Below are positions 6,566-52,761 of a stretch of 64,000 nt of DNA, in pieces (positions within the stretch are counted from its first letter, which is position 1; every line of letters starts with the position of its first letter). Under the pieces are notes generated by a model. It saw only the letters and a program-made list of their open reading frames with translations, did not search any database and was not told the origin of the DNA. This DNA is from an uncultured Methanosarcinales archaeon (GTDB taxonomy: Archaea; Halobacteriota; Methanosarcinia; Methanotrichales; Methanotrichaceae): assembly GCA_963843555.1 (NCBI GenBank), contig CAWJKV010000007.1, forward strand, positions 128,001 to 192,000. The letters run 5' to 3'. Both the position numbers and the translations under genes were made by a program.

Positions 6566-6614
6566 AATTTATAGATATTTGAGAAGACATCATAAAAGTA
6601 TGAAAAGTTATGAA
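6566..6614 (-). promoter_or_regulatory. 49-bp conserved promoter element, copy 1 (DUF1269 unit)
   Basis: Minus strand TTCATAACTTTTCATACTTTTATGATGTCTTCTCAAATATCTATAAATT. Confidence 0.85.
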
Positions 6615-6682
6615 AGGAATAGCCGCCACCGTCAAAGCCTTTCTGATTTATATCAGATATTGCACGGAACTGGTAGCCCGCT

Positions 6683-7849
6683 TTATCTACATTCGACAAC
6701 TATCCCCTCGCAATTCACTTGGCTGGCTGCAAACATCTTTCCAAACCGGCCGTCCATCTTCTTGCTGTAAAGCATAATTGCTTCATTGCTGGCTGCCATG
6801 GCTCTTGCATCACGAATGCACCTGTAAAAGGTGACACGAGAGATTTTGATATCATGATCCGGTGTAAAGAGCTTATCCTGGTTGCAGGCAGCCTTCCAGA
6901 TCGTCTCGTAGGCGGGGAGAACACATAACAGGCTGGCAAGGCGGTAACCTTTAGCCCGGTAGGGCAGAGCCTGGATATATGAGAAGAAGTCCTTCAGCTC
7001 ATTTAATACATCTCTCAATACATCCTGTTTCCAGCTCAGAGGTGCTCCCGCCAGGTTTAATGGCGCATACATGGCGCTTTGCATCCAACTATCTGGCAGG
7101 TAGCATACACCGCGCGATAGATCGTGGACAAAATCCTTTACAATATTGGTCTTTTGCAATCCTCGACCGCATGCTTCACTGAGGTTCAATAAGGTACTTG
7201 CTTCGTCATCATCCAGGCAATAATGATCAATGGCCAGATCAGTGCTCATATGACCTACCGTTCCTGCTACAAAATAGCAGTACTGATTGTAGTCCTGTTC
7301 TCTTGCGAGCAGGCGAACTTCCCCATGAGTTACAAATAACGGTTCGCTATCGGGATCTTCTGCATTCTCCATTCCTCTGGCCATCTCCAGGCTCCAGCAT
7401 CCAATAGCCGATCTGGGGGCATCAGGGATCAGAGAGTAAATCTGCCAGAGCGGCAAACCTTCTGCCAGGCTCATCATACGTCTCTCGTCAGGAGTTAATC
7501 CCGGCCAGTCCTCGTTTTCCCAAATGTGCAAGATCTCCCGGCTTTCAGCAGGATCCTTCAAAAGCTCTTTGAATTCAGAAAAACGCAATCTCTTCCAGTC
7601 CAGAGGCTGGCTGCAATCCTCAATATTATCAACCACCCGGCAGATCAGGTAGGCTGTGGACATGAAATAGTTAAGCGGATATTCGAAACATGGCGTAACA
7701 AGTGCAAAGGAACGAGAGACCTTATTCATGGAATCATTAAGGTACTTTTTCTGCAATTTGGTTAGGCTGAATTCATTGTTCACAATGAGCCACCGATCCT
7801 TTTTTTCAATAGGTCCATTATTTATACCCGGATCTAATTGTCGTCCCAA
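6683..7849 (-). CDS. Squalene/phytoene synthase family protein
   Basis: VSRSFAL, YLICRVVDNIED, YCYFVAGTVG, GRGLQKTNIVKDF..D..GVCYLP motifs. Confidence 0.9.
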   Translation of the reverse strand: MGRQLDPGINNGPIEKKDRWLIVNNEFSLTKLQKKYLNDSMNKVSRSFALVTPCFEYPLNYFMSTAYLICRVVDNIEDCSQPLDWKRLRFSEFKELLKDPAESREILHIWENEDWPGLTPDERRMMSLAEGLPLWQIYSLIPDAPRSAIGCWSLEMARGMENAEDPDSEPLFVTHGEVRLLAREQDYNQYCYFVAGTVGHMSTDLAIDHYCLDDDEASTLLNLSEACGRGLQKTNIVKDFVHDLSRGVCYLPDSWMQSAMYAPLNLAGAPLSWKQDVLRDVLNELKDFFSYIQALPYRAKGYRLASLLCVLPAYETIWKAACNQDKLFTPDHDIKISRVTFYRCIRDARAMAASNEAIMLYSKKMDGRFGKMFAASQVNCEGIVVECR

Positions 7850-7935
7850 TCGATATTTTTATACTGAAAAAATTCAATTGGGAAATGATCGAGCCTAAAG
7901 GATTTCCTCTTCGGCTCCACTTCCAACTGTCCTTT

Positions 7936-8427
7936 TCACTCGATGCTTATCTTGGTGTGGGTTATCACATTTTCCTTGGGAAGAGTGATGGTGAGCAGGC
8001 CATTATTTAAATCGGCTTTTGCCTGTTCCCTCTTAATGCCACATGGCAGTTTGATATCTCTCCGGAAGAGACCGTAGGACCGCTCACATTTCTGGACGGT
8101 TTCATCTTCCATCTCAGGCGCTTCAGTCTTCTTTGCCAGGACAGATAGCTCATCATCGGTTGCCGTGATTTCAATTGCTTCCTTCTCTACTCCGGGCATT
8201 TCCAGAGTAACGATGATCTCTTCATCTGTCTCCACAATATCGGTCAGAGGCTTTCTCACATTTCCCATTGCCATGGGAACGGAATCTGCGATACAGCTCA
8301 TTTTTCCGCAGAGCCCCTTCATCTTGTTTGAATAAATTGATTCAACATCTATCAGGCCGAGATCGTCTGCGAGCATATACATTCCCGTGCTCAAGCTCCT
8401 TATACCTTGATATAACATTCCGAACAT
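7936..8427 (-). CDS. Hsp20/alpha-crystallin small heat shock protein
   Basis: PLTDIVETDEEIIVTLEMPGVEK...ERSYGLFRRDIKLP...ADLNNGLLTITLPK. Confidence 0.9.
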   Translation of the reverse strand: MFGMLYQGIRSLSTGMYMLADDLGLIDVESIYSNKMKGLCGKMSCIADSVPMAMGNVRKPLTDIVETDEEIIVTLEMPGVEKEAIEITATDDELSVLAKKTEAPEMEDETVQKCERSYGLFRRDIKLPCGIKREQAKADLNNGLLTITLPKENVITHTKISIE

Positions 8428-8430
8428 ATT

Positions 8431-8718
8431 TTACCCTACCATTAGACTATTTGCTCCAAAATTCGCTTTGACTTTATCGAGCAATGCATCATGTGCCAGC
8501 AGGAACAGGGAGGATTTGCCAGGCTCGATGAAGTTTCCGGTTTCTTTAATGAATCTGTCATTAGCGCCTACGCCAGCATATTTGCCTGCCAGAGTTCCTG
8601 CTGCCGCTCCAATGACAAGTCCAAATACGGACATAAAGAGGATCAGACCTATTAGCAGTTCCCAGAGAGCCCCGCCTGGAGCTTTGGTATCTAAGGCCTG
8701 TGCAATTAAGTTGCTCAT
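8431..8718 (-). pseudogene. Internally deleted and truncated DUF1269 copy
   Basis: MSNLIAQALDT joined directly to GGALWELLIGLILF...AGKYAGVGANDRFIKE; lacks roughly 45 internal residues and the C-terminus of the full paralogs. Confidence 0.75.
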
Positions 8719-8760
8719 CTTTCTTTTTACTCCTCTTAATTCTCTTATTTGCTTCGATCA

Positions 8761-8809
8761 AATTTATAGATATTTGAGAAGCGCTCATAAAAGTATGAAT
8801 AGTTATGAG
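8761..8809 (-). promoter_or_regulatory. 49-bp conserved promoter element, copy 2
   Basis: Minus strand CTCATAACTATTCATACTTTTATGAGCGCTTCTCAAATATCTATAAATT. Confidence 0.85.
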
Positions 8810-8843
8810 TGCCTCGCAATCACCAGGGCTAAATGTTTCCTTT

Positions 8844-9791
8844 CTAAGACATCTTTGCGGATCGTATTACCAATACGGGCCTTTTTGCCTTTCTGGCCAC
8901 ATCGAAGACCACGCTTCCGACTGTTGAAGCATCGAGATATCCTTTGCCGGCAGAGCTCAGGACGATCAAGGATGCATCTATCTCCTCGGCCTTGGCCATT
9001 ATAGTTCCTTCGACGCCTCCGATATCCGGGATGGATCCGCCCTTTGATTGAGTCATGCCACCGGACCCATACGATCTATATCCAGCACCAACGGTAACCA
9101 CCTCGGAGGTTACATTGATCTTTACATGGGACATAAGATCTGTTTTGATGGCGTTGAGCTTCTCCTGTGCGTCCTTGGTTCTTGCTTCTATCTCCGCCGC
9201 GCTCTCACCTTTAGCGATCACGCTCAAGAGATGTACATCTATTGGCAGATCAATATTTTTTAACAAATTTATCGTTGCCATACCTGCCTCAGAGAAATCA
9301 ACCGGGCAGAGTATTTTGGAAAACAAATGAGGGCAGAGCTTCTCCATTGACCCGTCATCGACGATATTGTAGCGCATAATCAGGAGATTGTGGGTTCCCC
9401 GCTGCAATACTTTGGTAGAGACACTTCCCAGAAATATGCCTTTCAAGAGACTTCTTCCACGAGCGCCCATTACCACGAGATCGGCATTCTCCTCGTCTGC
9501 AACCCTCTCGATTACCTCGTACTCCGCACTGCTTGCTGACGGTTCCTCCCTAGCTTTGAAATTCAATCCCAACGCCTCGAGAGCACTCTTTGGTTTTGCC
9601 AGTTCCTCTCGGGCCTTTTTTTGGTCGTCTCCCGGAGACCATACCCTCGCCAATTCATCCTCTTTTAGCACATTCAAAAGGATTACATCTTTTACACCGG
9701 GGATCTCACCGACGCACTCAATAATTTTTTCGCCGTGTTTCGAGAAGTCGGTCGCCACCAAAACTTTTTTAAACATATTGGTTATCTCCAA
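8844..9791 (-). CDS. Tandem-domain universal stress protein (USP)
   Basis: FKKVLVATDFS...DLVVMGARGRS...LGSVS, then second domain FSKILCPVDFS...VGSVVFDVAR; alternative ATG at 9776. Confidence 0.9.
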   Translation of the reverse strand: MEITNMFKKVLVATDFSKHGEKIIECVGEIPGVKDVILLNVLKEDELARVWSPGDDQKKAREELAKPKSALEALGLNFKAREEPSASSAEYEVIERVADEENADLVVMGARGRSLLKGIFLGSVSTKVLQRGTHNLLIMRYNIVDDGSMEKLCPHLFSKILCPVDFSEAGMATINLLKNIDLPIDVHLLSVIAKGESAAEIEARTKDAQEKLNAIKTDLMSHVKINVTSEVVTVGAGYRSYGSGGMTQSKGGSIPDIGGVEGTIMAKAEEIDASLIVLSSAGKGYLDASTVGSVVFDVARKAKRPVLVIRSAKMS

Positions 9792-9833
9792 GACTTATTA
9801 TTTAGCTAATTATCTCAAAGATTACCCTGTATG

Positions 9834-9882
9834 CATTAATAGATATTTGTGATCACTGCATAATAGTATGAGAAATTATGAA
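9834..9882 (-). promoter_or_regulatory. 49-bp conserved promoter element, copy 3 (USP)
   Basis: Minus strand TTCATAATTTCTCATACTATTATGCAGTGATCACAAATATCTATTAATG. Confidence 0.8.
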
Positions 9883-9942
9883 TCTATGGATATTATTCAA
9901 ATATAAAACTTCACCATATACGAATAGTTGATCTGCTATATT

Positions 9943-11691
9943 TCATCCATTCATCCGTCTTGAGATTAAATCAACGCCCGCTATTGAGAAGCCTGTAAAG
10001 AAGAAGAATCCCCACAACCACCAAGGTAGGCCGAAGGCCGCTAATACTGCTCCTGTCAAGAGACAGATTCCGCCGAATGCTGTGCCCAAGATTACTGTGA
10101 GAGGATTGCCTTTATCCGTCCCAACTTGATATTCCAGAATACGCTTTAAATCGTTAATATATAGAGGGCTTTGCTTCAAGGTATCCAGTATCTCCGGGAC
10201 CAAAAGAATACTGGCTTTAAAGGTTTTGATCAAATTAAATTCTTCCAAGAGCAGATTTCGAATATGTTTCTTGGAAACGGCAACAACATTGATTCCTGGG
10301 ACAAGCTGGTTTCCCACTCCTTCTACCGTGACCAGTGCCTTAACCATCAGGATTATTTCACCTGGATACTCAATTCGATAGCGCCCTGCCAGTTTGACCG
10401 ATTCCAGAACGAGCTGCCCTAAGGAGAAGTCTTGGAAATTTGGATGCCTCAACCAGCGCCGGTTCAGATCCTCAACAGCCCTCCGAAAGCCATTCGGATC
10501 GCTTCTTATACCGGCATACGATAGGGCGGTCAGATAACGGGCTGCACTGGCCGAATCGCCTTCTGCTAAAGAATAAAAGTAATAGAACAACCTATTCCTT
10601 AGCTCGCTGTCAAACTGCCCTACCATTCCCAGATCGATAAAGCCAATCTTGCCCCCTTCCATTGCGATCATGTTTGCCGGATGAAGGTCCGCATGAAAAA
10701 AGCCATCCCTGAAGATCATTCTTATGATAGTCTTGATTCCCAGATCAATCAGCTTATACCTTCTTATCAGGTCTAACTTCTTAAGTTCAGCAGAGTCAGC
10801 TTCCTTTCCCTCTATGTATTCCATGCTCAAAGTATCACGATTGCTGAATTCTCTATAAATCGCCGGGAAACGTATTTTTGGCTCATCTTCGAAGTTGGCT
10901 GCAAATATCTCTGCATTATCGGCCTCAATTCGCAAATCCACCTCTCTCAGGCTGTATCTTGCAAATTCTTGGGTAAGCTTAGCCGGCTGGTAACGAGATA
11001 GAAAGATTTGTGAAATTCGTCCAAAAAAAGTCAGAAGCATGGTATCGGTCTGCACCATCTTTCTGACTCCGGGCTTGAGTACCTTGATCACAATCTCTTC
11101 TCCAGAACTCAATCTAGCTAGATGAGTCTGGGCCAGGGAACCTGAGCCCAACGGTTCCGGATCAATCCATGCAAACATCTCTTCAACAGGCCGTTTGAGA
11201 TCCGCCTCGATTAATTCTTTAAAGCGCTCAAAAGGCACTACCGGAGCTTGTCTAAGAAGATTTTTAAGCTCCTCTGTAACTGATTTTGGCAAAATATCCT
11301 CACGCAGGCTGAGAATTTGCCCTAGCTTTATATAAGACGGGCCCATCAGTTCGAGTCTCCGCCTGAATTGGACGGGGAAAGGTTGACTGATTATTTCTTT
11401 GATCATAAAAGGCCAGGCAAACACCAGTATTATGCGCAAAATGATTACCCTAAAGCTCCAGGCCCTTCCCTGATTTTTCATCTCTCTAACATAGGCAAAT
11501 CCCCCACCCAGCAGCATTCCAAGGAAATGTCTCAGAGTTCCAATGAAACGACGAATCAACCCCTGAGGAGGTTTTTCTTTGTATATTTCAAAGATGGGCT
11601 TTGGTTTTATCGGCTCAGATAAGTCTACAATCGTCACTTTCGTGGGTTCATCCCTGCATGATTTGAAACTCATAATTTTTCTTTGCCTCAC
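9943..11691 (-). CDS. ABC1/UbiB/AarF atypical kinase
   Basis: GPSYIKLGQILS, GSGSLAQTH, VIKVLKPG, FFHADLHPAN, IDLGMVG; C-terminal TMs. Confidence 0.92.
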   Translation of the reverse strand: MRQRKIMSFKSCRDEPTKVTIVDLSEPIKPKPIFEIYKEKPPQGLIRRFIGTLRHFLGMLLGGGFAYVREMKNQGRAWSFRVIILRIILVFAWPFMIKEIISQPFPVQFRRRLELMGPSYIKLGQILSLREDILPKSVTEELKNLLRQAPVVPFERFKELIEADLKRPVEEMFAWIDPEPLGSGSLAQTHLARLSSGEEIVIKVLKPGVRKMVQTDTMLLTFFGRISQIFLSRYQPAKLTQEFARYSLREVDLRIEADNAEIFAANFEDEPKIRFPAIYREFSNRDTLSMEYIEGKEADSAELKKLDLIRRYKLIDLGIKTIIRMIFRDGFFHADLHPANMIAMEGGKIGFIDLGMVGQFDSELRNRLFYYFYSLAEGDSASAARYLTALSYAGIRSDPNGFRRAVEDLNRRWLRHPNFQDFSLGQLVLESVKLAGRYRIEYPGEIILMVKALVTVEGVGNQLVPGINVVAVSKKHIRNLLLEEFNLIKTFKASILLVPEILDTLKQSPLYINDLKRILEYQVGTDKGNPLTVILGTAFGGICLLTGAVLAAFGLPWWLWGFFFFTGFSIAGVDLISRRMNG

Positions 11692-11745
11692 CTGAGCACA
11701 TAATTTTAAGATCTTATTGGTAATAAAATTTCTCTTAGATCCCGA

Positions 11746-12252
11746 TCATTCCACACGAATCCTCGTTCGAGCGGTCACAACCTCCTTAGGGATGGTGATG
11801 GTGAGCAGACCATTATTCAGAGTCGCGCCGGTCTCATCTCTCTTTATGCTACACTGCAGTTTGATCTTCCGCCGGTAGATTCCGTGTGACCTCTCACACT
11901 TAAGGGCTCTAACATCATGCATCTTTGGCTCTACCGTCTTCTTTGCGCGGACAGATAGCTCATCATCAGTTGCTGTAACCTCAATATCATCTTTTTGCAT
12001 TCCAGGTAGTTCCAGAGTTACAATGATCGCCTCGTCCGTTTTCACAAAATCAGTCAGAGGCTTCCTCACGTTTCCCGCCAGCAAAGGAATGGCTTCTGTT
12101 ATTCGGCCCATCTTCTCGTAGATGTATCTCATCTCATCAGAATAAGGGGTCTCGATATCGATCAGGCCCAAGTCATCCGCCACTAAATACATTTTTGTGG
12201 CGAGGTCATTTAACCCTTTACAAATCACTTTAGGTATCATCTGGCAAACCAC
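11746..12252 (-). CDS. Hsp20/alpha-crystallin small heat shock protein (paralog of 7936-8427)
   Basis: PLTDFVKTDEAIIVTLELPGM...ATLNNGLLTITIPK. Confidence 0.88.
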   Translation of the reverse strand: MVCQMIPKVICKGLNDLATKMYLVADDLGLIDIETPYSDEMRYIYEKMGRITEAIPLLAGNVRKPLTDFVKTDEAIIVTLELPGMQKDDIEVTATDDELSVRAKKTVEPKMHDVRALKCERSHGIYRRKIKLQCSIKRDETGATLNNGLLTITIPKEVVTARTRIRVE

Positions 12253-12269
12253 CTATAGCTAATCTAAAG

Positions 12270-12770
12270 CTAAGCATTGACAGCCTGGACCGCGAAGGCC
12301 GTCCTGAAATGATCTTCCTGCTCCTTGGAAAGAGACGTCTTCAATACCTTAATATTCTTATATTTCTTCAACTCATCCATGACCTTATCGGGCGTAGCAT
12401 CACGAACCAGCAGGAAAAGGGCAGAATTGCCGGGCTGAATGGAGTTGCCGACCTCTTTGATGAATTTGTCATCGACACCCACATCTGCATATTTGCCTGC
12501 CAGCGCTCCTGCTGCCGCTCCAATGACCATTCCGAATACGGGAACAAAGAATATCAAGCCTATCAATAGTCCCCAAAATGCACCACCAAGCGCTCCAGAT
12601 CCGGCCAGGCTGGTGACTTGTTTAACTTTAACCTTGCCATCTTTGTTTCTAACTGCTACTGCGGCATCATCCAGGCCGATTAGATGCTCCTTTTGCAGAC
12701 GCATCAAATCGTCTCTCATCTGCTCGGCACCGTTTTCAGTGTCGAAAGCCAATACAACTAAGTTACTCAT
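12270..12770 (-). CDS. DUF1269 family protein (close paralog of 6046-6528)
   Basis: Near-identical translation to 6046-6528. Confidence 0.9.
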   Translation of the reverse strand: MSNLVVLAFDTENGAEQMRDDLMRLQKEHLIGLDDAAVAVRNKDGKVKVKQVTSLAGSGALGGAFWGLLIGLIFFVPVFGMVIGAAAGALAGKYADVGVDDKFIKEVGNSIQPGNSALFLLVRDATPDKVMDELKKYKNIKVLKTSLSKEQEDHFRTAFAVQAVNA

Positions 12771-12886
12771 CGTTTCAATACCCTAATTTGTTTGAATTTC
12801 ATTTGCAAGATATAAGTAATGTCGCTGTTGGATTGGTGCATACTTCATTTGCCATTCGCTGATCGTTTTGCCATTGGCTTTCGATT

Positions 12887-12935
12887 AATTTATAGCTATT
12901 TGAGCTGTCATCATAAAAGTATGAACTATTATGAA
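12887..12935 (-). promoter_or_regulatory. 49-bp conserved promoter element, copy 4 (DUF1269-Hsp20-ABC1 unit)
   Basis: Minus strand TTCATAATAGTTCATACTTTTATGATGACAGCTCAAATAGCTATAAATT. Confidence 0.85.
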
Positions 12936-13102
12936 ATTGAAAATGCATAAGAGAACAGTAAGTGATATTTATCTGTTATAGATACCAGCAGCTTGCATTG
13001 AGAAGAGGTACCTTTGGGCAAAAGGGTGACGATACAAGAAGTGTTGCGCTTTATAAATGCACTAAGATAAATAATAATGCAATTATGTTTATAGGTTTCG
13101 CA

Positions 13103-13152
13103 TTCATATCAAATTCATACTCTTGGAAATGCTTCTCAAATACCTATTAATA
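13103..13152 (+). promoter_or_regulatory. Degenerate copy of the conserved promoter element
   Basis: TTCATATCAAATTCATACTCTTGGAAATGCTTCTCAAATACCTATTAAT: one extra base, third half-site lost. Confidence 0.55.
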
Positions 13153-13298
13153 CCTAAAATACCTATATATCTAAACTCAACAAAACATTATCGGAAAGAT
13201 ATTAAGAACCGCTATGGACCAGTCCGGGCAGATTTGTAATCGGTATCAATAGCTGAAGATGCTTCAAATATGCCCTTGAGAACTGAAATGGAGGTTTT

Positions 13299-13982
13299 AT
13301 GTATAAAAATATAGCTCTAACCTTAATGGTGCTGTGGGTCCTAGCAGCACCAACACAGAGTTCCATAGGTGAAAACTTGACAACCATGATGGAACCGACG
13401 ATAATAGGGCAGATTAATCAAACGGACCGAATCGTCACTCCTGCGGAAGCTAATCTATGGCTCCAACAGAGAACCCTCTGGCAAGAGCGCGCTTTCTGGA
13501 CCAGGATGGCCATTATGGCTATACTCCAGGATTCGGCTGATAAGGGGCCCGTCGTGAAACGATTGATGAGAAACTATGAGGATACAGCTCAAAACCTTGT
13601 GCCTTATTATGGAAATGAGACCTCAGAAAAGTACGGCAATCTGATCCGAGACAATCTTCTGATCACAGCCGATTTCGCCAATGCAGTCAGGCAAAAAGAT
13701 AAGACAGCGCTGGCGAATGCAAGCGTCGAATGGAATAAGAACGTAGAGGATATAGCCGATTTCGAAAACACACTTGGCGCCAACCTGACTCCGGTCGATA
13801 GAAAAGCCATTTGGCTGCAGCAATTGAACCTCACCAAGAATGAGACAATGCAGCTGTCCGATAAAGATTACAGCACATCCATTGATACCTTCGACCGAAT
13901 CGAGGAATTGAGCAGTATGATGGCGGACTCGCTTGCTAACGGGATCATCCGAAGGTTCTCCGAGGAGTTCCATCAGAATTGA
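13299..13982 (+). CDS. Secreted helical-bundle protein
   Basis: Signal peptide; LWQERAFWTRMAIMAI...RLMRNYED...LVPYYG core; GGAGGT RBS. Confidence 0.75.
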   Translation: MYKNIALTLMVLWVLAAPTQSSIGENLTTMMEPTIIGQINQTDRIVTPAEANLWLQQRTLWQERAFWTRMAIMAILQDSADKGPVVKRLMRNYEDTAQNLVPYYGNETSEKYGNLIRDNLLITADFANAVRQKDKTALANASVEWNKNVEDIADFENTLGANLTPVDRKAIWLQQLNLTKNETMQLSDKDYSTSIDTFDRIEELSSMMADSLANGIIRRFSEEFHQN

Positions 13983-14019
13983 TTGTGAATGATTCGTTTA
14001 GATGCTTCGAGGAAGAAAT

Positions 14020-15180
14020 ATGAAAAAAATCTTGGCTATGGCAGTGCTTCTGATACTCCTTTGCATGAATGCATGGGCTCAGCCGACACCGCCAGCAACA
14101 CCGCCCAGTCCAGAATCTCTGGGATTGCCGGTACCGGAAGCAACCAACAGTACCTCTGCTCCCCCAGTTTCTGAGACTACCCAGGCTGCAGTTTCCACAA
14201 CAGCAACCACTGCAGAAGCAGCTGCGCCCTCAACTCAGGCTACAACTACGGCCAGCACCAACATGGTAGTGCCCGTGGGAGTTCCAGTTCCTAATAAATT
14301 CTACATCCCCTACTCGCCATCAACCACGGCAAGCTGTTACTATGGTCAGTGGGTGCCTATGTGGCTTGATAATAAAGGATATGGCCCTCTGTATACATAC
14401 GAGTGGTATCCTGATGGGAGACTTGTAACACAATATCTCGCCAACATACCTTATCCGGGCTGGCTGAAGATGTGGTTCTATGGAGATGCCCCAGGCTGGC
14501 ACACCCTGCAGTACTACTGCAACGGCTGGAGCAATTACATCTATGTCTACGTAAATGGTGGCACGACGGCCCCAACTCAGCCGCCTGCTCAAGGCTGCAA
14601 TGCTAGAATTGTTGTCAGTTCACCGTATGCGAGAGGATATTCTGTTTACGTGGATGGCTACTATAAAGGAGGAGACGGCCAGAATGGAGACCCGATGGAC
14701 GGATATTATGAATTCTACGTTCCAGGAGGTCAGCTGCACACGATAAAGGTCTTCTATCAGGGTGGAACCTACCAGCAGACAAAGACCTACTACTGTGGAA
14801 GCACCTACATGATAACAATATCATCGGCACCGCCAACTGGAAGCACGCCGCCAGCGGAAACTACGCCGCCTGTAGAGCCAGTAGAGCCTACACCGCCTGT
14901 AGAGCCAGTGCCACCAGTAGAGCCTGTATATCCGACGCACCCTATAGAGTTACCTGCATATCCGACGCACCCTATAGTGATTGAACCTATACCTGTATAT
15001 CCGACACAGCCTATAGCGACTCCACCTGCTCTTCCGACACAGCCTATAGCGACTCCACCTGCTCTTCCAACACAGCCTATAGCGACTCCACCTGCTCTTC
15101 CAACACAGCCTATAGCGACTCCACCTGCAGTTCCAACACAGCCTATAGCGACTCCAACCCCTACAGTGACACCTTACTAG
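14020..15180 (+). CDS. Secreted Pro/Thr-rich surface protein
   Basis: MKKILAMAVLLILLCMNAWA signal peptide; Tyr/Trp-rich beta domains; C-terminal PTQPIATPPAL repeats. Confidence 0.8.
   Translation: MKKILAMAVLLILLCMNAWAQPTPPATPPSPESLGLPVPEATNSTSAPPVSETTQAAVSTTATTAEAAAPSTQATTTASTNMVVPVGVPVPNKFYIPYSPSTTASCYYGQWVPMWLDNKGYGPLYTYEWYPDGRLVTQYLANIPYPGWLKMWFYGDAPGWHTLQYYCNGWSNYIYVYVNGGTTAPTQPPAQGCNARIVVSSPYARGYSVYVDGYYKGGDGQNGDPMDGYYEFYVPGGQLHTIKVFYQGGTYQQTKTYYCGSTYMITISSAPPTGSTPPAETTPPVEPVEPTPPVEPVPPVEPVYPTHPIELPAYPTHPIVIEPIPVYPTQPIATPPALPTQPIATPPALPTQPIATPPALPTQPIATPPAVPTQPIATPTPTVTPY
15001..15156 (+). repeat. 33-bp coding tandem repeat, about 4.7 copies (PTQPIATPPAL)
   Basis: Units ccRacacagcctatagcgactccacctgctctt start at 15001, 15034, 15067, 15100 and 15133. 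Confidence 0.95.
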
Positions 15181-15514
15181 GCGATTGATTGTGAAGTAAT
15201 AGGGCATCCTTGGATGCTCTATTGCTGAATCAAGATCCATTTTTTTGGTATAATTATATGTCAAAATGAATAATTTATCGGCTATTTCGAGTTATAGCCA
15301 AGGATACCGAAAATTTTGAAGAGCGACTCCACCCGAGCAGACAGTGACACTTACTAAGCAATTGATTGTGAAGTAATAGGGCATCCTTGGATGCTCTATT
15401 ACTGAATCGAGATCCAATTTTTTTATAACTATGACTCAAAAAAAGTGATTGATCGGTTATTTCGATCTCGCTTCTTACTTGCTATAGCCAAGGATACCGA
15501 AAATCTTGAAGAGC
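15147..15514. repeat. Imperfect tandem duplication (~180-190 bp) of a convergent-gene junction
   Basis: 15147-15324 and 15322-15514 both read agcgactcc...acagtgacac...gtgaagtaatagggcatccttggatgctctatt...tatagccaaggataccgaaaat.ttgaagagc. Confidence 0.85.
15195..15226. terminator. Hairpin after the Pro-rich gene (second copy at 15372-15403)
   Basis: AGTAATAGGGCATCC-TT-GGATGCTCTATTGCT inverted repeat with a T-run shortly after. Confidence 0.5.
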
Positions 15515-15819
15515 TTTTTAAAATCTACGTTTTTAGTCTCCACGGTGACAGCCGCAGTCCCCGCGGCAATCAGTGTCATATCACCGCCACTGTATATCAG
15601 AGCACGTGTGGGGCTCCAATTCCTCGGTGCTTCGCGAGCAAATTCTCTAAACGTGGAGGTGATCTCCATAAGCATTTTGCTTGTGTGCTCCTTAACTATC
15701 TCGGGATCTACAATACCCTTGGCCTTCCAGTCAACGATTCGTCCCATATCATCCAATTTCGCTACGGCAATGACACCATCCACTTGAAATAAGTCGTCTG
15801 TATTTACCAAAGAAAACAC
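15475..15819 (-). CDS. DUF2173-like (roadblock-fold) protein
   Basis: DDLFQVDGVIAVAKLDDMGRIVDWK...NWSPTRALIYSGGD pattern. Confidence 0.65.
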   Translation of the reverse strand: MFSLVNTDDLFQVDGVIAVAKLDDMGRIVDWKAKGIVDPEIVKEHTSKMLMEITSTFREFAREAPRNWSPTRALIYSGGDMTLIAAGTAAVTVETKNVDFKKLFKIFGILGYSK

Positions 15820-15845
15820 CTCTATTCTTTTTTACTCTTTGCGAA

Positions 15846-15894
15846 AATAAATAGATATTTGAGATTCCATCATAAAAATATGAAAAGTTATGAA
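15846..15894 (-). promoter_or_regulatory. 49-bp conserved promoter element, copy 5
   Basis: Minus strand TTCATAACTTTTCATATTTTTATGATGGAATCTCAAATATCTATTTATT. Confidence 0.85.
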
Positions 15895-17419: not shown

Positions 17420-17468
17420 AATTTATAGCTATTTGAGAAGCTGCCATAAAAGTATGAAACGTTATGAA
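17420..17468 (-). promoter_or_regulatory. 49-bp conserved promoter element, copy 6 (CMD-SHOCT unit)
   Basis: Minus strand TTCATAACGTTTCATACTTTTATGGCAGCTTCTCAAATAGCTATAAATT. Confidence 0.85.
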
Positions 17469-17540: not shown

Positions 17541-17589
17541 ATCATAACTTTTCATACTTTTCTGACTAACTCTTAAATATCTATAAATT
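17541..17589 (+). promoter_or_regulatory. 49-bp conserved promoter element, copy 7 (radical SAM gene)
   Basis: ATCATAACTTTTCATACTTTTCTGACTAACTCTTAAATATCTATAAATT. Confidence 0.85.
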
Positions 17590-19891: not shown

Positions 19892-19940
19892 GATTTATAG
19901 ATATTTGTGAAACCCTGACAGAAGTATGAAAAGATATGAA
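19892..19940 (-). promoter_or_regulatory. 49-bp conserved promoter element, copy 8
   Basis: Minus strand TTCATATCTTTTCATACTTCTGTCAGGGTTTCACAAATATCTATAAATC. Confidence 0.8.
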
Positions 19941-19980: not shown

Positions 19981-22900
19981 CTACCATTCCTTTATCCGCA
20001 TATTGCTTGTTTTAACGCGGGTTTTCCATATATTATAAATAATCTGCAGACGTTCGTTATCGCTTATCATAGCTTCATCAGCCAGTTTGTGTTCGGTAAG
20101 ATCCTGCTGGAGGCACAGGTATCCTTCCGGTTCTCTGGCTTCTCCCAGGGAAGCAATTATATTTTCAATGTAGATATGCCCTGCTCGACTCGGAGGCATC
20201 TTTTTATCTATGTCGGTATCCTTTGCCTTAGCGGTTTTCATCTTGATCCATCTGCCTTCACTGACAATTTGGCCGTCTTCCAGCTTATGTTTGCTTTCAA
20301 TATCTGCTATTACTTCACGGAATATGTTATACCTCTTATGCTTGCCAGTACCAATCAAGCTCATAATTTTCTCGCTTACCTGGTTGGAATTAACTATAAA
20401 ACCTTCTGAATCATACAGCTGAATGCCGATGGGAGATAGCTCAAAGATCTTCCTGAATCGCTCCTCGCGTTCGCTCAAGTCTTTTTCCATTTTCTTTCTA
20501 TCTGTTATATCCAGGCTTGAACCAATTAAGCATAAAGGTTTGCCCGCTGCATCTTTAACAATGTTTGCAGATAGATGGATATCGAATGTAGAACCGTCTT
20601 TTTTCTTACCGACAATGTCGCCTGACCAGGCTCCTTTTTTGAGTGAGGCATCTATTACTTCATCAATTTCACCAGGATCACCAAAGAACACCCGAGCGGG
20701 CTTACCCAGGACCTCATCCTTTTTGTATCCCCACAGATCTAAGGCAGCCGCATTGACATAGGTAAGAATTCCTTTGGTATCAGCAATAACCGTCGCTGTA
20801 ATTGCAGCCTCGATGGCAGCATCTTTAATCCTCAGGCTTTCCTCCATTTTCCGTTGCTCTGTTATATCTATAACTACACATAGTGCACCCCAATCAGAAA
20901 TAGGAGTGGGAACTGCTTTAGTGTTGGCCCAAACAATTTCCCCATTTTCTTTTTCAATCCCAATTTCGATGTACGGGGTAGGCTTTTTCTCATGCATCGC
21001 CTTTCCTGCAGGGAAATTTTTATATAAATTATCCTCTGTATCCTTTGGATTTGGCAAAATGCTTCCATCAGCCGAGAAGCATTTCCACTCCCAATGTTTT
21101 TTTCGATTTAATTCATCCAGGGACAAATCCGTGAAATCGATGAAGGATTGATTAGCCTCGATAATTCTGCACTCTTTATCTACCACATATATTCCAATAG
21201 GTATAAGATCAAAAATAGCCTTAAGTTTATTCTCGCTTTCCATCAATTTTTTCTGTGCCTTTTTGCTTTCGCTGATATCAACGAATGAGCTGATTATACA
21301 GACGGATCTATCTGATCTATCCTTGACAGTGCTTATGGAGAGGTGAACATCCATGTATGAGCCGTCTTTTTTCCTGAAAACCAGCTCACCCTCCCATCTG
21401 CCAGTTGCAGATATTTGCTTTGCTATTTTATCGGCATCTTTGGGGTATTGCAGGAAATCATGGAGAGAATGCCCCACAATTTCTTCTCTTTCATATCCCA
21501 TCTTCCTCAGCCAGGATTCATTGGCATAGAATAGATCTCCCGACGAATTGGCCAGAGATATGGCATTCAGGGACGATTCAATTGCCTCGTCCTTAATTCT
21601 CAGAGACTTCTCCTTCTCCGCTCGTTCAGTGATATCGCGGGTGACTACTCCTATGCTAAAACCATTCTCCGTCTTTATGGGGAAGAGCACCTCGTGAATG
21701 GTTCTGCGCGTTCCATCAGCTAGCTGGATCTCCTGGTCCTCAAACCATCCCTTCAGGGCTATTCGTCCCTTATCAGTAAGCCGGATCAAAAAGGATTTTA
21801 TCTTCTCGTAATCTTCCTCGGTTTTTTGATCATCCGGAATTAATTGAAACTCGACATCCCATGCAAATTTGCCTAGCACTTCTTCTCGCTTTAAGCCGGT
21901 GATATATTCCTGGGAGTCATTCCATTCTACAATTTTGCCGCTGTAGTCTATAAGGCTTATGCCGTCCTCCGAGTTCTCTACAATGCTGCGGAACTTTTGT
22001 TCGCTCTCTCGCAGCGCCTCATCGATCTGCTTGAGCTTCGTGATCTCCATATGATGCCATAATCGACCGTAGGATTTTCCATCGATGAATATAGGAATAA
22101 AATCTCGCAGGCATGTCTTCCCACCTTGCAGAGAGACTTCCTGACCTTTTACCGGTTGCCCTTGGTTCACGATCTCCTCGATGCGGGCGACTTCCTCATC
22201 TGGATTTAAAAAAGAGTCCTTTATCTTTCCGATAATCTCCTGAGAACCGAGCCCAACTAATTCTTGAGGCGCGTCCTTCAGATCAAATAGGCTGCAGAAT
22301 GCTTGATTGGCATACTCGATTCGATCCTCATCAGTCACAAGCAAGATGCCGGCATACAGGCTGGAAAGAATAGCGTATGAGCGCTGCAAAGTAGTGCGCA
22401 GTTGGTCTTCTGACTTCTTTCCACCGGTGATATCCTCAAAGGTGCTGTAGACCCGGTAAGGTTTTATTTCTCCCGGTAGAAATTGAGGTATAGCATTGAT
22501 ATTTATCCATCTATATTCCATGGCATTAGAGTTGAAGATCCCCATCACAATGTTCTCGACAGTCTTCCCTGTAGCTAAGGCGATCATGGCGGGATGGGTC
22601 TCTCCAGGAAAATCTGAGCCATCTTCATGTATTGCCTTCCACCCTGGATCATTGGATGTCCTGCCTTCAATCTGGCCCGAGGTCAAGCCAAGAATCCTTT
22701 GCGCGGCAGGATTTGCTGAGATTATGTTCCCATTATCATCTTGATATACTACGCCCTGCACCATAGTCTCAAAGAGCAGGCGGTATTGTTCTTCAGATTG
22801 CCTTAGCTGCTCTTCTGCTTTTTTGCGATCGGCAATTACCTGGAAATATACGGATATGCCATTCTCTCTGGGGTACACCCGTACATCATACCAATTTTCA

Positions 22901-23565
22901 TAAGGCTTTACCCCAAAGTAAGTCTCGAAAGAGATAGAGCGTTTTTCTTTATTCGCCCAGTTATATGTATCATCAAAAATGGATCCCTTAATTTCAGGAA
23001 ATGCATCGAATATATTGTATCCAACAACCTCTGGGCCAGTCCGTCCCAGCAGCAACTCCGCAGCTTTATTGAAGTAGGTGATCTTCAGGTTCTCATCCAG
23101 AACAAAAAATCCATCGCTAATGCTTTGGAGAATTTCTTTATATTCCTTCTTTGCTGCATTTGCCTCGCTCTCAGCATTCTTGAGGCTGGTTATATCCAGG
23201 AGAGCAACTTGCATAGCGGTTTTTCCCTGATATTCGATAAAATTTGCCCGCACATCTAACCAGGCAGTGTCCCCATTTTTCCTGATAATTCGAAACTCCT
23301 GACGCAGGGGCAGTTTGTTGCTAGAAATGCCGTCTATCATGGCTCCAAGGATGCTATTTTGGTCATCGGGATAGATCATCGACATGAAATCATTAGCAGA
23401 AAGAGCAAGCATATCCTCCAGAGTATGCCCGGTTATATCGGCCAAGCTCCTATTAGCATAGACCAATTTTTTGTTCTGAATTATTCCCATTCCTAGGAGG
23501 GCGTTATCAATTAATTCACGACAAATTTCCTTATTAAGCTCAATATCCGGGATCTCAGAAGACAT
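19981..23565 (-). CDS. Multi-PAS sensor protein (about nine PAS/PAC repeats, no recognisable output domain)
   Basis: Repeated N...G(Y)..EE..G and DIT(E)RK motifs over 1194 aa; no HisKA/HATPase boxes seen. Confidence 0.85.
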   Translation of the reverse strand: MSSEIPDIELNKEICRELIDNALLGMGIIQNKKLVYANRSLADITGHTLEDMLALSANDFMSMIYPDDQNSILGAMIDGISSNKLPLRQEFRIIRKNGDTAWLDVRANFIEYQGKTAMQVALLDITSLKNAESEANAAKKEYKEILQSISDGFFVLDENLKITYFNKAAELLLGRTGPEVVGYNIFDAFPEIKGSIFDDTYNWANKEKRSISFETYFGVKPYENWYDVRVYPRENGISVYFQVIADRKKAEEQLRQSEEQYRLLFETMVQGVVYQDDNGNIISANPAAQRILGLTSGQIEGRTSNDPGWKAIHEDGSDFPGETHPAMIALATGKTVENIVMGIFNSNAMEYRWININAIPQFLPGEIKPYRVYSTFEDITGGKKSEDQLRTTLQRSYAILSSLYAGILLVTDEDRIEYANQAFCSLFDLKDAPQELVGLGSQEIIGKIKDSFLNPDEEVARIEEIVNQGQPVKGQEVSLQGGKTCLRDFIPIFIDGKSYGRLWHHMEITKLKQIDEALRESEQKFRSIVENSEDGISLIDYSGKIVEWNDSQEYITGLKREEVLGKFAWDVEFQLIPDDQKTEEDYEKIKSFLIRLTDKGRIALKGWFEDQEIQLADGTRRTIHEVLFPIKTENGFSIGVVTRDITERAEKEKSLRIKDEAIESSLNAISLANSSGDLFYANESWLRKMGYEREEIVGHSLHDFLQYPKDADKIAKQISATGRWEGELVFRKKDGSYMDVHLSISTVKDRSDRSVCIISSFVDISESKKAQKKLMESENKLKAIFDLIPIGIYVVDKECRIIEANQSFIDFTDLSLDELNRKKHWEWKCFSADGSILPNPKDTEDNLYKNFPAGKAMHEKKPTPYIEIGIEKENGEIVWANTKAVPTPISDWGALCVVIDITEQRKMEESLRIKDAAIEAAITATVIADTKGILTYVNAAALDLWGYKKDEVLGKPARVFFGDPGEIDEVIDASLKKGAWSGDIVGKKKDGSTFDIHLSANIVKDAAGKPLCLIGSSLDITDRKKMEKDLSEREERFRKIFELSPIGIQLYDSEGFIVNSNQVSEKIMSLIGTGKHKRYNIFREVIADIESKHKLEDGQIVSEGRWIKMKTAKAKDTDIDKKMPPSRAGHIYIENIIASLGEAREPEGYLCLQQDLTEHKLADEAMISDNERLQIIYNIWKTRVKTSNMRIKEW

Positions 23566-23700: not shown

Positions 23701-23749
23701 ATCATAACTTTTCATACTTTTATGACATTGCCTCAAATATGTATATAAG
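23701..23749 (+). promoter_or_regulatory. 49-bp conserved promoter element, copy 9 (DUF6325-sulfatase-DUF1622 unit)
   Basis: ATCATAACTTTTCATACTTTTATGACATTGCCTCAAATATGTATATAAG. Confidence 0.85.
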
Positions 23750-28011: not shown

Positions 28012-28060
28012 TTCATAACAATTCATATATTTATGAAGACGCCACAAATATCTATATCTG
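28012..28060 (+). promoter_or_regulatory. 49-bp conserved promoter element, copy 10 (BASS-MFS unit)
   Basis: TTCATAACAATTCATATATTTATGAAGACGCCACAAATATCTATATCTG. Confidence 0.8.
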
Positions 28061-38480: not shown

Positions 38481-38529
38481 TATTTATAAACATTTAATCC
38501 TGACACATAAAAGTATGAAAAATTATGAA
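38481..38529 (-). promoter_or_regulatory. 49-bp conserved promoter element, copy 11 (small ORF and glycosidase block)
   Basis: Minus strand TTCATAATTTTTCATACTTTTATGTGTCAGGATTAAATGTTTATAAATA. Confidence 0.8.
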
Positions 38530-45051: not shown

Positions 45052-45100
45052 AATTTATAGATATTTGAGATGCAATCATAAAAGTATGAATAGTTATGAA
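45052..45100 (-). promoter_or_regulatory. 49-bp conserved promoter element, copy 12 (gnd operon)
   Basis: Minus strand TTCATAACTATTCATACTTTTATGATTGCATCTCAAATATCTATAAATT. Confidence 0.88.
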
Positions 45101-50203: not shown

Positions 50204-50252
50204 TTCATAACTTATCATACTTCTATGATTCTTTCTTAAATAAGTATTAATT
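50204..50252 (+). promoter_or_regulatory. 49-bp conserved promoter element, copy 13 (crystallin gene)
   Basis: TTCATAACTTATCATACTTCTATGATTCTTTCTTAAATAAGTATTAATT. Confidence 0.8.
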
Positions 50253-50287: not shown

Positions 50288-50656
50288 ATGAAATTCACTG
50301 GAAAAATAGCCATGGGAATACTAATCGCCGCAGTTGCGCTAATTGCGGTTGGCATCGCCCAAAACGAGACTGCAACAGAGATTCCCGAAGCAATAGTATT
50401 TTCAGGTACTATGATGGAGGGTAATCACAGACATGTCTTTATGAGTATACCAGATTTGACTGTTGGCTCAAATGAGTGGAACGATGACATCTCATCGATT
50501 GTAGTCATTTCCGGGGAATGGACTTTCTTTGAGGCTCCTCTAGGCGCCGGGGAAGTGCCAAATCCATCCGTTACATTGGGGCCCGGAGTTTATCCTGATG
50601 TAGCGAAAGAGAAAATACCGGACAATTCTATCTCACAAATCCGTTTAGAAGCCTAG
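50288..50656 (+). CDS. Secreted beta/gamma-crystallin domain protein
   Basis: Signal peptide; WNDDISSIVVISGEWTFF and LGPGVYPD...DNSISQIR Greek-key motifs. Confidence 0.8.
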   Translation: MKFTGKIAMGILIAAVALIAVGIAQNETATEIPEAIVFSGTMMEGNHRHVFMSIPDLTVGSNEWNDDISSIVVISGEWTFFEAPLGAGEVPNPSVTLGPGVYPDVAKEKIPDNSISQIRLEA

Positions 50657-51133: not shown

Positions 51134-51197
51134 TGAAGTCCCGGTCATAGCGCCGCCTCGTCTTCTTCATGTACTTCCCTCCATGAGTTGATGTTAC

Positions 51198-51851
51198 TTA
51201 ACTCATTTTCCACTGGGCGGGGTTCACTCCAAAGGAGTAGTATAATTGCGCCGCAACATACCCGGCAAGAGCGATTCTTGGAGAGAATAACGCAAAGATT
51301 ATCGCACAGCCAGTAATAACGGCGGCAATTTGCCGCCTCCGCTTCAAAGCATTAAGCTCGCCTCTTGCCGACTCATCGACGAGGATATCGGGAGTGCTGA
51401 CTGCTGAACGTATGATCGTGTTCATCATAGCCGATGCTGCCAGTAGATCTAACCCGTAGATTATTACCGGGAAAGCTGGATAGGGGCCATCGATGTGAGT
51501 AGCCATGAACTTCGTAGTGAATGGAAGCAGCGACACGAAGAACAGCATTAAAAGAGTAAATCGGTACGAACGGGGGGTTTCTTGTTTGGTCAAATAGGTG
51601 ATTGAAGAATGCGCTAGCCAAAAACTACCGATAAATGCAAAGCTTATGATGTAAGCGAAGAAATCAGGCCATAATGGCATAAGCGCTGTAAAATCTTCGG
51701 ATGCCTCTGGTATGGGTAGATCGAGCACCAGTAACGTGATGACTATCGCAAACACGCCATCAGCGAATGCATCTAAACGACCTTTGGAAAGGGATTTCAT
51801 TATGTTATCCACTTCAATGAGCAATAGGCCGGAGGCTGTACCTTTTGGCAT
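51198..51851 (-). CDS. TMEM175 family channel, second copy (probable start ATG 51801)
   Basis: Near-identical to 45210-45830. Confidence 0.88.
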   Translation of the reverse strand: MPKGTASGLLLIEVDNIMKSLSKGRLDAFADGVFAIVITLLVLDLPIPEASEDFTALMPLWPDFFAYIISFAFIGSFWLAHSSITYLTKQETPRSYRFTLLMLFFVSLLPFTTKFMATHIDGPYPAFPVIIYGLDLLAASAMMNTIIRSAVSTPDILVDESARGELNALKRRRQIAAVITGCAIIFALFSPRIALAGYVAAQLYYSFGVNPAQWKMS

Positions 51852-51887
51852 GGGAATTCCAGTGCAATCATCTTTGCATGACTCATC

Positions 51888-51977
51888 TCATCCCTCCCAA
51901 ACAATGGTCACAATTGTAAGCGTCACAAACAATGCTTGGGCAGCTCCCAGCAATGCCAGGAGTGCCAAGATCGTCAT
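51888..51977 (-). pseudogene. Remnant of the four-TM membrane gene seen at 5537-5935
   Basis: MTILALLALLGAAQALFVTL vs ITILAILALIGAAQALIITL. Confidence 0.6.
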
Positions 51978-51990
51978 GATAAATGACAGC

Positions 51991-52512
51991 CTACTTCTTC
52001 TTTTTTGCCTCTGCGAGCGCTGCACCCATCAAGATTATCGCTTCAGGTTGAAGCAGACCCTGCGAGATCAAGACCCCGTTCGAGTTTCGAAGAGCTTCTT
52101 TTATGCCCTTTGCCCATAAATGCTCAACGAGCATTATAAGCGCGGAGCTATTATTGGGGATCTTGTCTGCCCCTAAATTCAAGATATCGTCTATTGAATA
52201 ACCAAAGCTCCCATCAGCCGCCAATTCTGCACCAGCCTCTGCACCGGCTTTCGCCCCTTCAATCCCGCCTGCGCCCAAACCAAGAAGTGCACCAACCGCG
52301 GCCCCCAGTTTAATAACCTCATCTTTTCCTAAATCTGTGCCTTCAATAGAGGTGATATTTCCTTTCGCATCCTTTGTTACGAAAAGGTAGTCAATTAAAC
52401 GAATGACGCCCTTCTTCTTGGCATCATTTAGAGCTGGAAGGATCTCTCCACTGAACTTGTTACCAGGAAACCCGATAACAAACATCTGTATTGGTCCATA
52501 CATCACTGTCAT
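51991..52512 (-). CDS. DUF6325/DUF1269-like protein
   Basis: YGPIQMFVIGFPGNKFSGEILPAL...GVIRLIDYLFVTKD...SSALIMLVEHLWAK. Confidence 0.85.
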   Translation of the reverse strand: MTVMYGPIQMFVIGFPGNKFSGEILPALNDAKKKGVIRLIDYLFVTKDAKGNITSIEGTDLGKDEVIKLGAAVGALLGLGAGGIEGAKAGAEAGAELAADGSFGYSIDDILNLGADKIPNNSSALIMLVEHLWAKGIKEALRNSNGVLISQGLLQPEAIILMGAALAEAKKKK

Positions 52513-52568
52513 GATTCATTCCTCTTATTTCTAATTCCACTAATAACAATTATACAAGCTTTTTTTGA

Positions 52569-52617
52569 GATATATAGCTTTTTGAGATTCCTGCATAAAA
52601 GTATGAATAGTTATGAA
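52569..52617 (-). promoter_or_regulatory. 49-bp conserved promoter element, copy 14
   Basis: Minus strand TTCATAACTATTCATACTTTTATGCAGGAATCTCAAAAAGCTATATATC. Confidence 0.85.
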
Positions 52618-52712
52618 GCATGAGGCAATAAGATCATATTTAACAGGACGATCGGAGACCTGAAGATCACCGGCTGGCTGACATCTTTTATATGATCGGC
52701 ATGCTGTAGACC

Positions 52713-52761
52713 TTCATAATTATTCATACTATTATGAAAGCATCTCAAAAATCTCTATCTA
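52713..52761 (+). promoter_or_regulatory. 49-bp conserved promoter element, copy 15 (second sulfatase)
   Basis: TTCATAATTATTCATACTATTATGAAAGCATCTCAAAAATCTCTATCTA. Confidence 0.8.

Follow-up and report, generated by a model that had tools for sequence, protein, structure and literature searches.

Promoter copies at the locus

The window analysed here is a stretch of 64,000 nucleotides (nt), positions 128001-192000 of contig C7 (CAWJKV010000007.1) of a metagenome-assembled genome (MAG) from the archaeal family Methanotrichaceae (GCA_963843555.1, called G000 below; 2.68 Mb in 18 contigs, 82% complete), whose genus is probably Methanothrix. Its intergenic regions carry 16 copies of a 49-bp module in which three short half-sites precede a core promoter, and we read this module as a promoter combined with the site of one transcription factor that probably acts as an activator. 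The initial annotation had placed 15 gapless copies and a degenerate one, at 13103, in this region, and all 16 positions do hold the module in the orientation that it implied. The copies are given below with strand, matrix score and the genes that they serve, together with the PAS gene that lies among them; gene families were assigned by Pfam and NCBIfam searches.

6566..6614, minus strand, 80.5 bits: DUF1269 protein (6046-6528), unknown membrane proteins (5537-6013 and 4710-5423), Ion_trans channel (3915-4700)
8761..8809, minus strand, 74.1 bits: short DUF1269 protein (8431-8718), Hsp20 (7936-8427), squalene/phytoene-synthase-like protein (6683-7849)
9834..9882, minus strand, 62.9 bits: tandem-Usp protein (8844-9791)
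12887..12935, minus strand, 69.8 bits: DUF1269 protein (12270-12770), Hsp20 (11746-12252), ABC1/UbiB-type kinase (9943-11691)
13103..13151, plus strand, degenerate, with a 1-nt insertion between half-sites 1 and 2: secreted proteins (13299-13982 and 14002-15180)
15846..15894, minus strand, 75.8 bits: DUF2173 protein (15475-15819)
17420..17468, minus strand, 71.2 bits: CMD/AhpD-like protein (17005-17355), SHOCT protein (16563-16844), unknown protein of 194 amino acids (aa; 15982-16566)
17541..17589, plus strand, 68.5 bits, divergent from the 17420 copy: tetraether lipid synthase Tes (17624-19168)
19892..19940, minus strand, 62.7 bits, directly past the stop codon of the PAS gene: unknown 107-aa protein (19413-19736)
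19981..23565, minus strand: PAS-only protein of 1194 aa, between two modules
23701..23749, plus strand, 63.6 bits: DUF6325-like protein (about 23784-24329), sulfatase (24455-26803), DUF1622 protein (26892-27338)
28012..28060, plus strand, 60.9 bits: SBF transporter (28139-29005), MFS transporter (29071-30564)
38481..38529, minus strand, 56.1 bits: Lys-rich 44-aa protein (38266-38400), then a glycoside hydrolase/glycogen-debranching cluster (30691-38128)
45052..45100, minus strand, 80.4 bits: five-gene operon with 6-phosphogluconate dehydrogenase first (44074-45009), further lactonase (42921-44027), glucose-dehydrogenase-like protein (41821-42867), CoA-disulfide-reductase-like protein with a rhodanese domain (40067-41806) and SsuA/NMT1-like protein (38856-40022)
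50204..50252, plus strand, 62.7 bits: beta/gamma-crystallin-like secreted protein (50288-50656)
52569..52617, minus strand, 70.3 bits: DUF6325 protein (51991-52512), TMEM175-type channel (51198-51851)
52713..52761, plus strand, 64.2 bits, divergent from the 52569 copy: sulfatase (52847-55213)

As had been described, the TATA end of the module faces a start codon on either strand. In 16/16 window copies a start codon on the same strand lies 26-155 nt past the module end (27-156 in the earlier count); most of these start codons are preceded by a Shine-Dalgarno-like GGAGG or GGTG, and none of the window copies lies inside a long open reading frame (ORF). The earlier figure of about 35 controlled genes has to be raised slightly, as the window probably comprises 16 transcription units with about 39 genes when judged by operon count.

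The whole G000 assembly was searched with a position weight matrix derived from the 15 gapless window copies. It returned 17 matches of at least 15 bits, all of them at 56-80 bits and none between 15 and 56. Fifteen lie inside the window and two outside it, at C14:39302 and C2:75896 (both plus strand), each with a sulfatase gene downstream. Scattered, unoriented or intragenic matches had been named in advance as evidence against a regulon; all 17 gapless copies are intergenic and oriented toward a start codon. Separate scans with positions 1-25 (the operator half) and 32-48 (the promoter half) placed the promoter block at offset 31 in 17/17 of them. With up to three mismatches allowed, the 25-nt upstream half alone matched 14 times in the window versus 0 times in 100 dinucleotide-preserving shuffles; the 19892 copy exceeds three mismatches in this 25-mer, yet reaches its 62.7 bits with the full 49-bp matrix.

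Three extra copies in G000 carry an insertion or deletion (indel) of 1 nt. Besides the one at 13103, whose metagenome orthologue (L065:1508) is gapless and scores 56.2 bits, these are C2:4615, with an insertion within the block of the TFB-recognition element (BRE) and upstream of the second Tes gene, and C2:293272 (plus strand), a degenerate module with a 1-nt insertion and TATGA changed to TAAGA, 36 nt before the glutamine synthetase gene glnA. The latter may be a decayed or a recruited copy. With two gapless and two indel-bearing copies on other contigs, the putative regulon is wider than the island to which it had been assigned.

Contig C7 is chromosomal, as its flanks carry LeuA, argininosuccinate synthase, OapB/OapC, eIF2-gamma and Rpo7. 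The G+C content of window positions 2001-24000 is 43-47%, compared with about 51.5% for the genome and 50-58% in the island's right half. The cumulative GC skew is lowest at around 57 kb of the window (about 56000-58000), and at C7:121053-122470 a GTPase gene is followed by the origin-associated OapB and OapC genes; a replication origin may be nearby. The high copy number within one region could in principle reflect a mobile repeat resembling miniature inverted-repeat transposable elements, a structured RNA, or a recombination or origin site, the last also in view of OapB and OapC about 6 kb left of the window. We consider this group of explanations hardly credible. The copies have sharp 49-bp edges with uninformative flanks and are all directed at genes; neither integrase nor transposase nor tRNA was found in the window, and viral contigs gave 0 motif matches. 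Rfam returned 0 matches at the gathering score, and no consistent fold emerged from five copies (z-scores -1.2 to +1.8).

Two conserved blocks at fixed spacing

Conservation was analysed on 82 modules, 17 from G000, 6 from G092 (97% complete), 1 from G195 (68% complete) and 58 from metagenome contigs. Three of them lack full flanks, and the set contains 72 distinct 49-mers, which have the following anatomy.

Positions 2-7: TCATAA, 1.6-1.8 bits
Positions 8-10: variable, low information
Positions 11-25: TTCATACTTTTATGA, 1.3-1.9 bits, with C13, A14 and T15 invariant in 72/72
Positions 26-31: free spacer, 0.1-0.85 bits (at most 0.5 at 27-30)
Positions 32-39: CTCAAATA, i.e. CTC followed by AAATA (BRE), 1.3-1.9 bits, with AAA invariant, C32 in 71/72 and T33 in 63/72
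Positions 40-41: variable, low information (position 40 at most 0.5 bits)
Positions 42-48: TATWWAT, conserved (42-44 at 1.3-1.9 bits)
Flanks, 25 nt upstream and 45 nt downstream: about 0 bits except for a weak A/T preference at 55-56 and 61-63

Three TCATA(A/C) half-sites lie within positions 1-25, namely TCATAA at 2-7, TCATAC at 12-17 and an inverted TTATGA at 20-25. The initial description of a direct TCATA repeat followed by a TCATA-N4-TATGA palindrome holds, with TCATA at 2-6 and 12-16 and TATGA at 21-25. The first and second half-sites are direct repeats with centres 10 bp apart, and the second pairs with the third as an imperfect palindrome of 14 bp, TCATAC-TT-TTATGA. The operator block is separated by 6 nt from the CTC-BRE block in 17/17 gapless G000 copies and in all 72 unique copies; indels occur in 0/82 of the copies that the gapless matrix detects, the three indel copies having been detected separately. 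The description of a variable 6-bp spacer between the two halves also holds, since this segment is fixed in length and low in information across the 72 copies. CTC at 32-34 constitutes an extra conserved element ahead of the BRE and is far more conserved than the matching columns of the general BRE. Within this block TCAAAT (33-38) matches the half-site at 4/6 positions and stands 21 bp, or two helical turns, from the second half-site. As an idea for experiment, CTC and TCAAAT might offer the factor a route to touch the BRE.

Coding DNA of G092 and of the window agrees at only 66-81%, and the genes stand in a rearranged order; the modules still align at 79-92%. Orthologous promoters, those of the DUF1269 operon and of the divergent PAS/DUF6325-like pair, retain the module, and the remaining intergenic DNA is unalignable. 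Because the modules are kept in G092 while the surrounding intergenic DNA cannot be aligned, this comparison indicates purifying selection on two blocks at fixed spacing.

A consensus-like core promoter

The general promoter consensus of G000 was obtained by expectation maximization on 1572 upstream regions without the motif. Two different seeds converged on CRAAA-NN-TTTATATA, i.e. (C/A)(A/G)AAA-NN-T(T/A)TATATA, which counting of 8-mers did not reveal. The consensus matrix picks one register in 71/72 modules, with the BRE at 35-39 (AAATA), NN at 40-41 and the TATA box at 42-49, reading TATAAATT or TATTTATT. This supports the view that the 49-bp module is an archaeal promoter in the register BRE-NN-TATA. 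The TATA box had been called non-canonical; however, the sequence on which this was based, TCTATAAA, is two bases out of register, and in the consensus register the box is canonical. The module core has a median of 9.1 bits versus 6.1 bits for the 1572 other upstream regions, 16.5% of which reach 9.1, and one departure from the consensus is a T at BRE position -4. Counted from a TATA centre at about 45-46, transcription would probably start near module position 70-72. The weak A/T signal at 61-63 would then fall at about -10, where a promoter-proximal element would be expected. A search of RNA sequencing runs returned none that contains window positions 6001-16000.

An alternative TBP or TFB had also been proposed, and a dedicated second factor of this kind, as in the TFB/TBP regulons of haloarchaea, could account for the unusual uniformity of the CTCAAATA block. 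A single TFB ORF of 338 aa was found in each of five genomes, G000, G092, G195 and the same-genus G019 and G005. A single ORF above the TBP family cut-off is present in G000, G092 and G019, and the genome with two such ORFs, G005, lacks the module. With a single gene for TFB and a single gene for TBP found in G000 and likewise in G092, the module is very unlikely to be read by a dedicated general factor. A second gene could have escaped the 82% complete G000, but G092 is 97% complete.

Distribution across genomes and metagenomes

Among 185,579 species-representative genomes the motif occurs in only one besides G000, namely G092, which belongs to the same family but another genus and has two contigs that together carry at least 7 full modules. 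A 38-nt pattern with up to three mismatches was absent from 40 relatives, 24 of them of the same genus. Across 201 genomes sampled from the class, G000 had 16 matches to the three-half-site pattern at no more than one mismatch and G092 had 5, compared with 0-4 in the other sampled genomes, similar to a reversed control pattern. G195, a sister species that is 91-96% identical to G000 at core loci, has one module, upstream of its Tes gene. The scan of metagenome contigs yielded 47 loci, of which 45 hold 58 modules of at least 40 bits, all gapless. The other two (L057 and L060, at 24 and below 20 bits) are chance matches and were excluded from all counts. A conserved near-match, TCATCAC...TATGA, in three same-genus genomes was likewise rejected because it sits within a coding frame. 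The module is restricted to a clade represented by G000, G195, G092 and the metagenome contigs.

DUF1269 orthologues with 67-80% aa identity are present in 18 relatives, and the module stands upstream of 0/18 at a threshold of 5 bits. Several groups of these module-less relatives have a different conserved sequence upstream of the orthologue. For example, the same-genus loci L103-L112 carry TTTTCATGGTAACTATGCAGAAAGTATATAAG, with a TCATG-N5-TATGC dyad abutting the BRE that may represent a different or an ancestral operator. At core loci, TFB and TBP, identity to G000 amounts to 81-86% for G019 and G005 and to 77-80% for G092, whereas DUF1269 DNA is 72-75% identical in other same-genus genomes and 77% in G092. 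As DUF1269 DNA is at least as close to G092 as to the same-genus genomes, these identities hint that the gene set passed from one lineage to another long ago, or that most of them lost it.

Genes served by the module

The genes behind the modules include three glycine-zipper membrane proteins of the DUF1269 family in the window, with a C39-peptidase fusion on C2, and two DUF6325 or DUF6325-like glycine-zipper proteins. Stress proteins are represented by two Hsp20 and one tandem Usp protein, channels by TMEM175, Ion_trans and CLC types, and transporters by SBF and MFS members. Four sulfatases are served as well as an ABC1/UbiB-type kinase, a squalene/phytoene-synthase-like protein, an AhpD-like CMD protein, a DUF2173 protein and a SHOCT protein with its unknown neighbour. 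Small or secreted products are the beta/gamma-crystallin-like protein and the 44-aa Lys-rich protein, and the carbohydrate genes form the glycogen-debranching/GH63-like cluster. 6-Phosphogluconate dehydrogenase is assigned with 367 bits against a cut-off of 271; the CoA-disulfide-reductase-like protein with its rhodanese domain stays below the equivalog cut-offs. The radical-SAM gene at 17624-19168 encodes the tetraether lipid synthase Tes (NF045702, 645.4 bits, cut-off 450). In the 82% complete G000 there are only two copies of Tes, this one and C2:2978-4519, which are 93% identical as proteins, and both lie behind modules.

In the metagenome contigs, 37/49 modules with a callable downstream ORF precede families known from the window. 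Some of their products, paralogues among them, diverge to 35-45% aa identity (Hsp20, DUF6325), and HEAT-repeat proteins of 600-1000 aa appear as additional members. Overall, the served genes look like a general stress, dormancy and membrane-remodelling programme of a wetland Methanothrix lineage.

The region 30691-38128 contains two tandem copies of a GH63/MGH1-like hydrolase, each divided between an N-terminal ORF (427 and 381 aa) and a catalytic one. A frameshift is suggested by the end of the second N-terminal ORF, which does not resemble that of its paralogue, and by the 79-aa ORF behind it. Two short ORFs of 88 and 93 aa without family at 27346-27917 look like fragments of one gene. The Orn/Lys/Arg decarboxylase at 62009-63998 appears as two ORFs that overlap (62009-63058 and 62982-63998), probably owing to a frameshift or an assembly error.

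A probable upstream factor and its alternatives

We consider it likely that a dedicated factor of either sign, activator or repressor, reads the module, and we favour, with less assurance, one transcription factor acting as an activator. A complete archaeal promoter would thus be joined at fixed distance to the upstream site of a single, predicted sequence-specific factor. This protein would bind at about -70 to -46 relative to the expected start, directly upstream of TFB/TBP, would most likely activate by contacting or recruiting them, and would in this way switch on about 20 transcription units together upon a presumed inducing signal. An activator is favoured because the upstream site is analogous to those at which archaeal factors are known to bind, EarA being the closest. 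The initial annotation had described the module as the operator-promoter of one activator. A regulon governed by an upstream site is supported by the fixed distance, the selection and the non-homologous units served, whereas activation is predicted from the position of the site.

Several points weigh against this reading. The good match of the core promoter to the genome consensus voids the argument for activator dependence from a weak BRE or TATA box. A share of the similarity between copies must be due to common descent of the promoter segment, and co-regulation of the units, like their co-expression, is presumed from shared sequence alone. At C5:195554 (minus strand) the CTCAAATATCTATTAAT promoter block (28.2 bits) is kept before a HEAT-repeat gene, with unrelated sequence in the operator's place; orthologues of this gene in G092 and two metagenome contigs have the full module. 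With this natural operator-less variant the promoter half may work alone. Finally, the searches for a regulator were negative. The absence of a DNA-binding regulator from the window had been remarked upon before, and Pfam found none on 58 window ORFs. None was found either by relaxed Pfam searches on 19 unknown window proteins and the termini of the PAS protein, among 56 ORFs in 52 kb of C7 flanks, or among 67 ORFs of 170 kb of module-bearing metagenome contigs plus the G092 contigs. In addition, 17 winged helix-turn-helix ORFs of G000 were named with NCBIfam, nine candidates among them were tested by their distribution, and all nine failed.

Among these nine, the Lrs14/Sta1-like protein at C5:224526 has 91-94% orthologues in module-less genomes, the MreA paralogues and two further candidates belong to the core, and neither G092 nor G195 has a counterpart that matches the MarR at C18:3429. 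An HTH_45 protein of G092 was rejected because its best G000 counterpart reaches only 47%, so that no close orthologue exists, and a NirDL/AsnC-type protein, the other hit among the G092 and metagenome ORFs, was rejected too. The product of 13299-13982, with a weak Forkhead/PAS match, is a secreted protein, and two genes without assigned function that repeatedly accompany module genes (C7:194800-195984) encode membrane proteins.

Negative searches of this kind and the consensus-like core would also be expected of a constitutive promoter cassette that spread by duplication or recombination. Positions 1-25 would then be structural and no dedicated regulator would exist; the T-tracts at 9-12 and 18-21 are indeed in helical phase. 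Still, we regard such a cassette as improbable. The 25-bp block is base-specific beyond the demands of curvature, with its three repeated half-sites and C13, A14 and T15 kept in 72/72 copies, the served genes form a coherent stress set rather than highly expressed housekeeping genes, and same-genus relatives use a different promoter for the DUF1269 orthologue.

Because the core promoter is consensus-like, repression or dual control also has to be weighed. The same site could be occupied by a repressor or dual regulator that holds a strong promoter off until stress, by spreading or bending from the operator half onto the CTCAAATA/BRE block, where TCAAAT would serve as a fourth weak half-site. 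The rank of the core promoter in the top 16.5% of upstream regions, the conservation of CTC at 32-34 well beyond the general BRE columns and the persistence of a promoter-only derivative at C5:195554 would fit. However, according to PMC5512572, repressors in archaea act at BRE/TATA or downstream of it, and activators upstream. Moreover, the best-conserved block of the module (1-25) lies entirely upstream, and the likeness of TCAAAT to a half-site, which extends to only 4/6 positions, makes it a doubtful fourth site. Repression therefore appears to us unlikely, if less so than a cassette without regulator.

Activation by an upstream factor thus remains our preferred reading, and the PAS-only protein of 1194 aa (19981..23565) could be part of it. 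Neither a kinase nor a DNA-binding domain was detected in this protein, and the position of its gene between two modules is kept in G092. A second PAS-only copy at C17:11529-14462 shares 84% DNA identity with window positions 19981-23565 and has no module nearby. One may speculate that the protein is a candidate sensor of the system. A more far-reaching proposal is a self-contained archaeal general stress response with a new type of regulator that reads a three-half-site operator locked to the BRE. Such a regulator might have no recognisable DNA-binding fold or might be partnered with the PAS-only protein; membrane hardening by both tetraether synthases, chaperones, channels, glycogen mobilisation and NADPH/thiol redox enzymes would make up one dormancy programme, and the regulon would have moved with its promoters between Methanotrichaceae genera, as the DUF1269 identities compared with the core loci would support. 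We regard this proposal as a long shot.

Methanothrix is among the main acetate-using methane producers of wetlands and digesters. It is rare for an archaeal regulon to be defined by a sharp cis-element, and the literature searched yielded no such case in Methanothrix. The 25-bp operator could be used as bait for the regulator. About 20 promoters of the same geometry, with three 1-nt indel variants and an operator-less one, lend themselves to the study of the interplay between a BRE-adjacent factor, TFB and TBP. As both Tes genes of G000 stand behind a stress-type promoter, formation of glycerol dialkyl glycerol tetraethers as a regulated stress response becomes directly testable, a point of relevance to lipid proxies. 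The set of genes served offers a hypothesis for how wetland Methanothrix may survive drying, oxygen or starvation.

Comparison with known systems

The motif had not been recognised from any described regulon, and our literature searches likewise gave no description of it, nor of a Methanothrix regulon with Hsp20 and Usp genes. Regulons defined by a factor site upstream of BRE/TATA are of a known kind; the motif, its rigid fusion to the core promoter, the gene set including Tes and the host lineage were not found in the literature. Bacterial sigma-B and RpoS regulons comprise small heat-shock proteins, Usp proteins, glycine-zipper proteins, sugar dehydrogenases and redox enzymes and have a similar flavour. 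However, they need an alternative sigma factor, which archaea do not have, and no alternative TFB or TBP was found here. In the Thermococcales, SurR (GTTn3AAC) and TrmBL1/Tgr (TATCAC-N5-GTGATA) govern palindrome-defined regulons of tens of genes, with activation from upstream sites. Their motifs lie at variable distance on either side of the TATA box, whereas the module keeps its distance in 17/17 copies and its BRE/TATA block is conserved too. For wetland Methanothrix genomes, 467 unique genes have been reported, and the text available mentions no promoter motif (PMC5691036).

In the passages available on archaeal activators, Ptr2 of Methanocaldococcus jannaschii recruits TBP and TFB-RF1 of Pyrococcus furiosus recruits TFB, each from a site upstream of BRE/TATA (PMC5512572, PMC10665913). 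The module resembles this class in that the putative factor site is immediately upstream of the BRE. It differs in that promoters of Ptr2 and TFB-RF1 have a weak TATA box or a weak BRE, whereas the module core matches the genome consensus, and in that each of the two factors serves one or few promoters compared with about 20 here. To our knowledge, their binding sequences are unrelated to that of the module.

The closest described case are the fla/arl promoters of EarA in Methanococcus maripaludis and the Thermococcales. As far as the same sources describe it, EarA uses four TACATA sites of 6 bp that directly precede the BRE, and the promoter in question has a good TATA box (PMC5512572, PMC10665913). 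The half-site of the module with its preceding T, TTCATA, equals TACATA at 5/6 positions. Still, the module does not fit the EarA regulon, which is marked by TACATA hexamers and the archaellum operon; the hexamers here are TTCATA, TCATAA and TCATAC. EarA controls one archaellum operon, whereas the module stands at about 20 promoters of stress and membrane genes, none of them for the archaellum, and presents three half-sites, one of them inverted, at fixed spacing.

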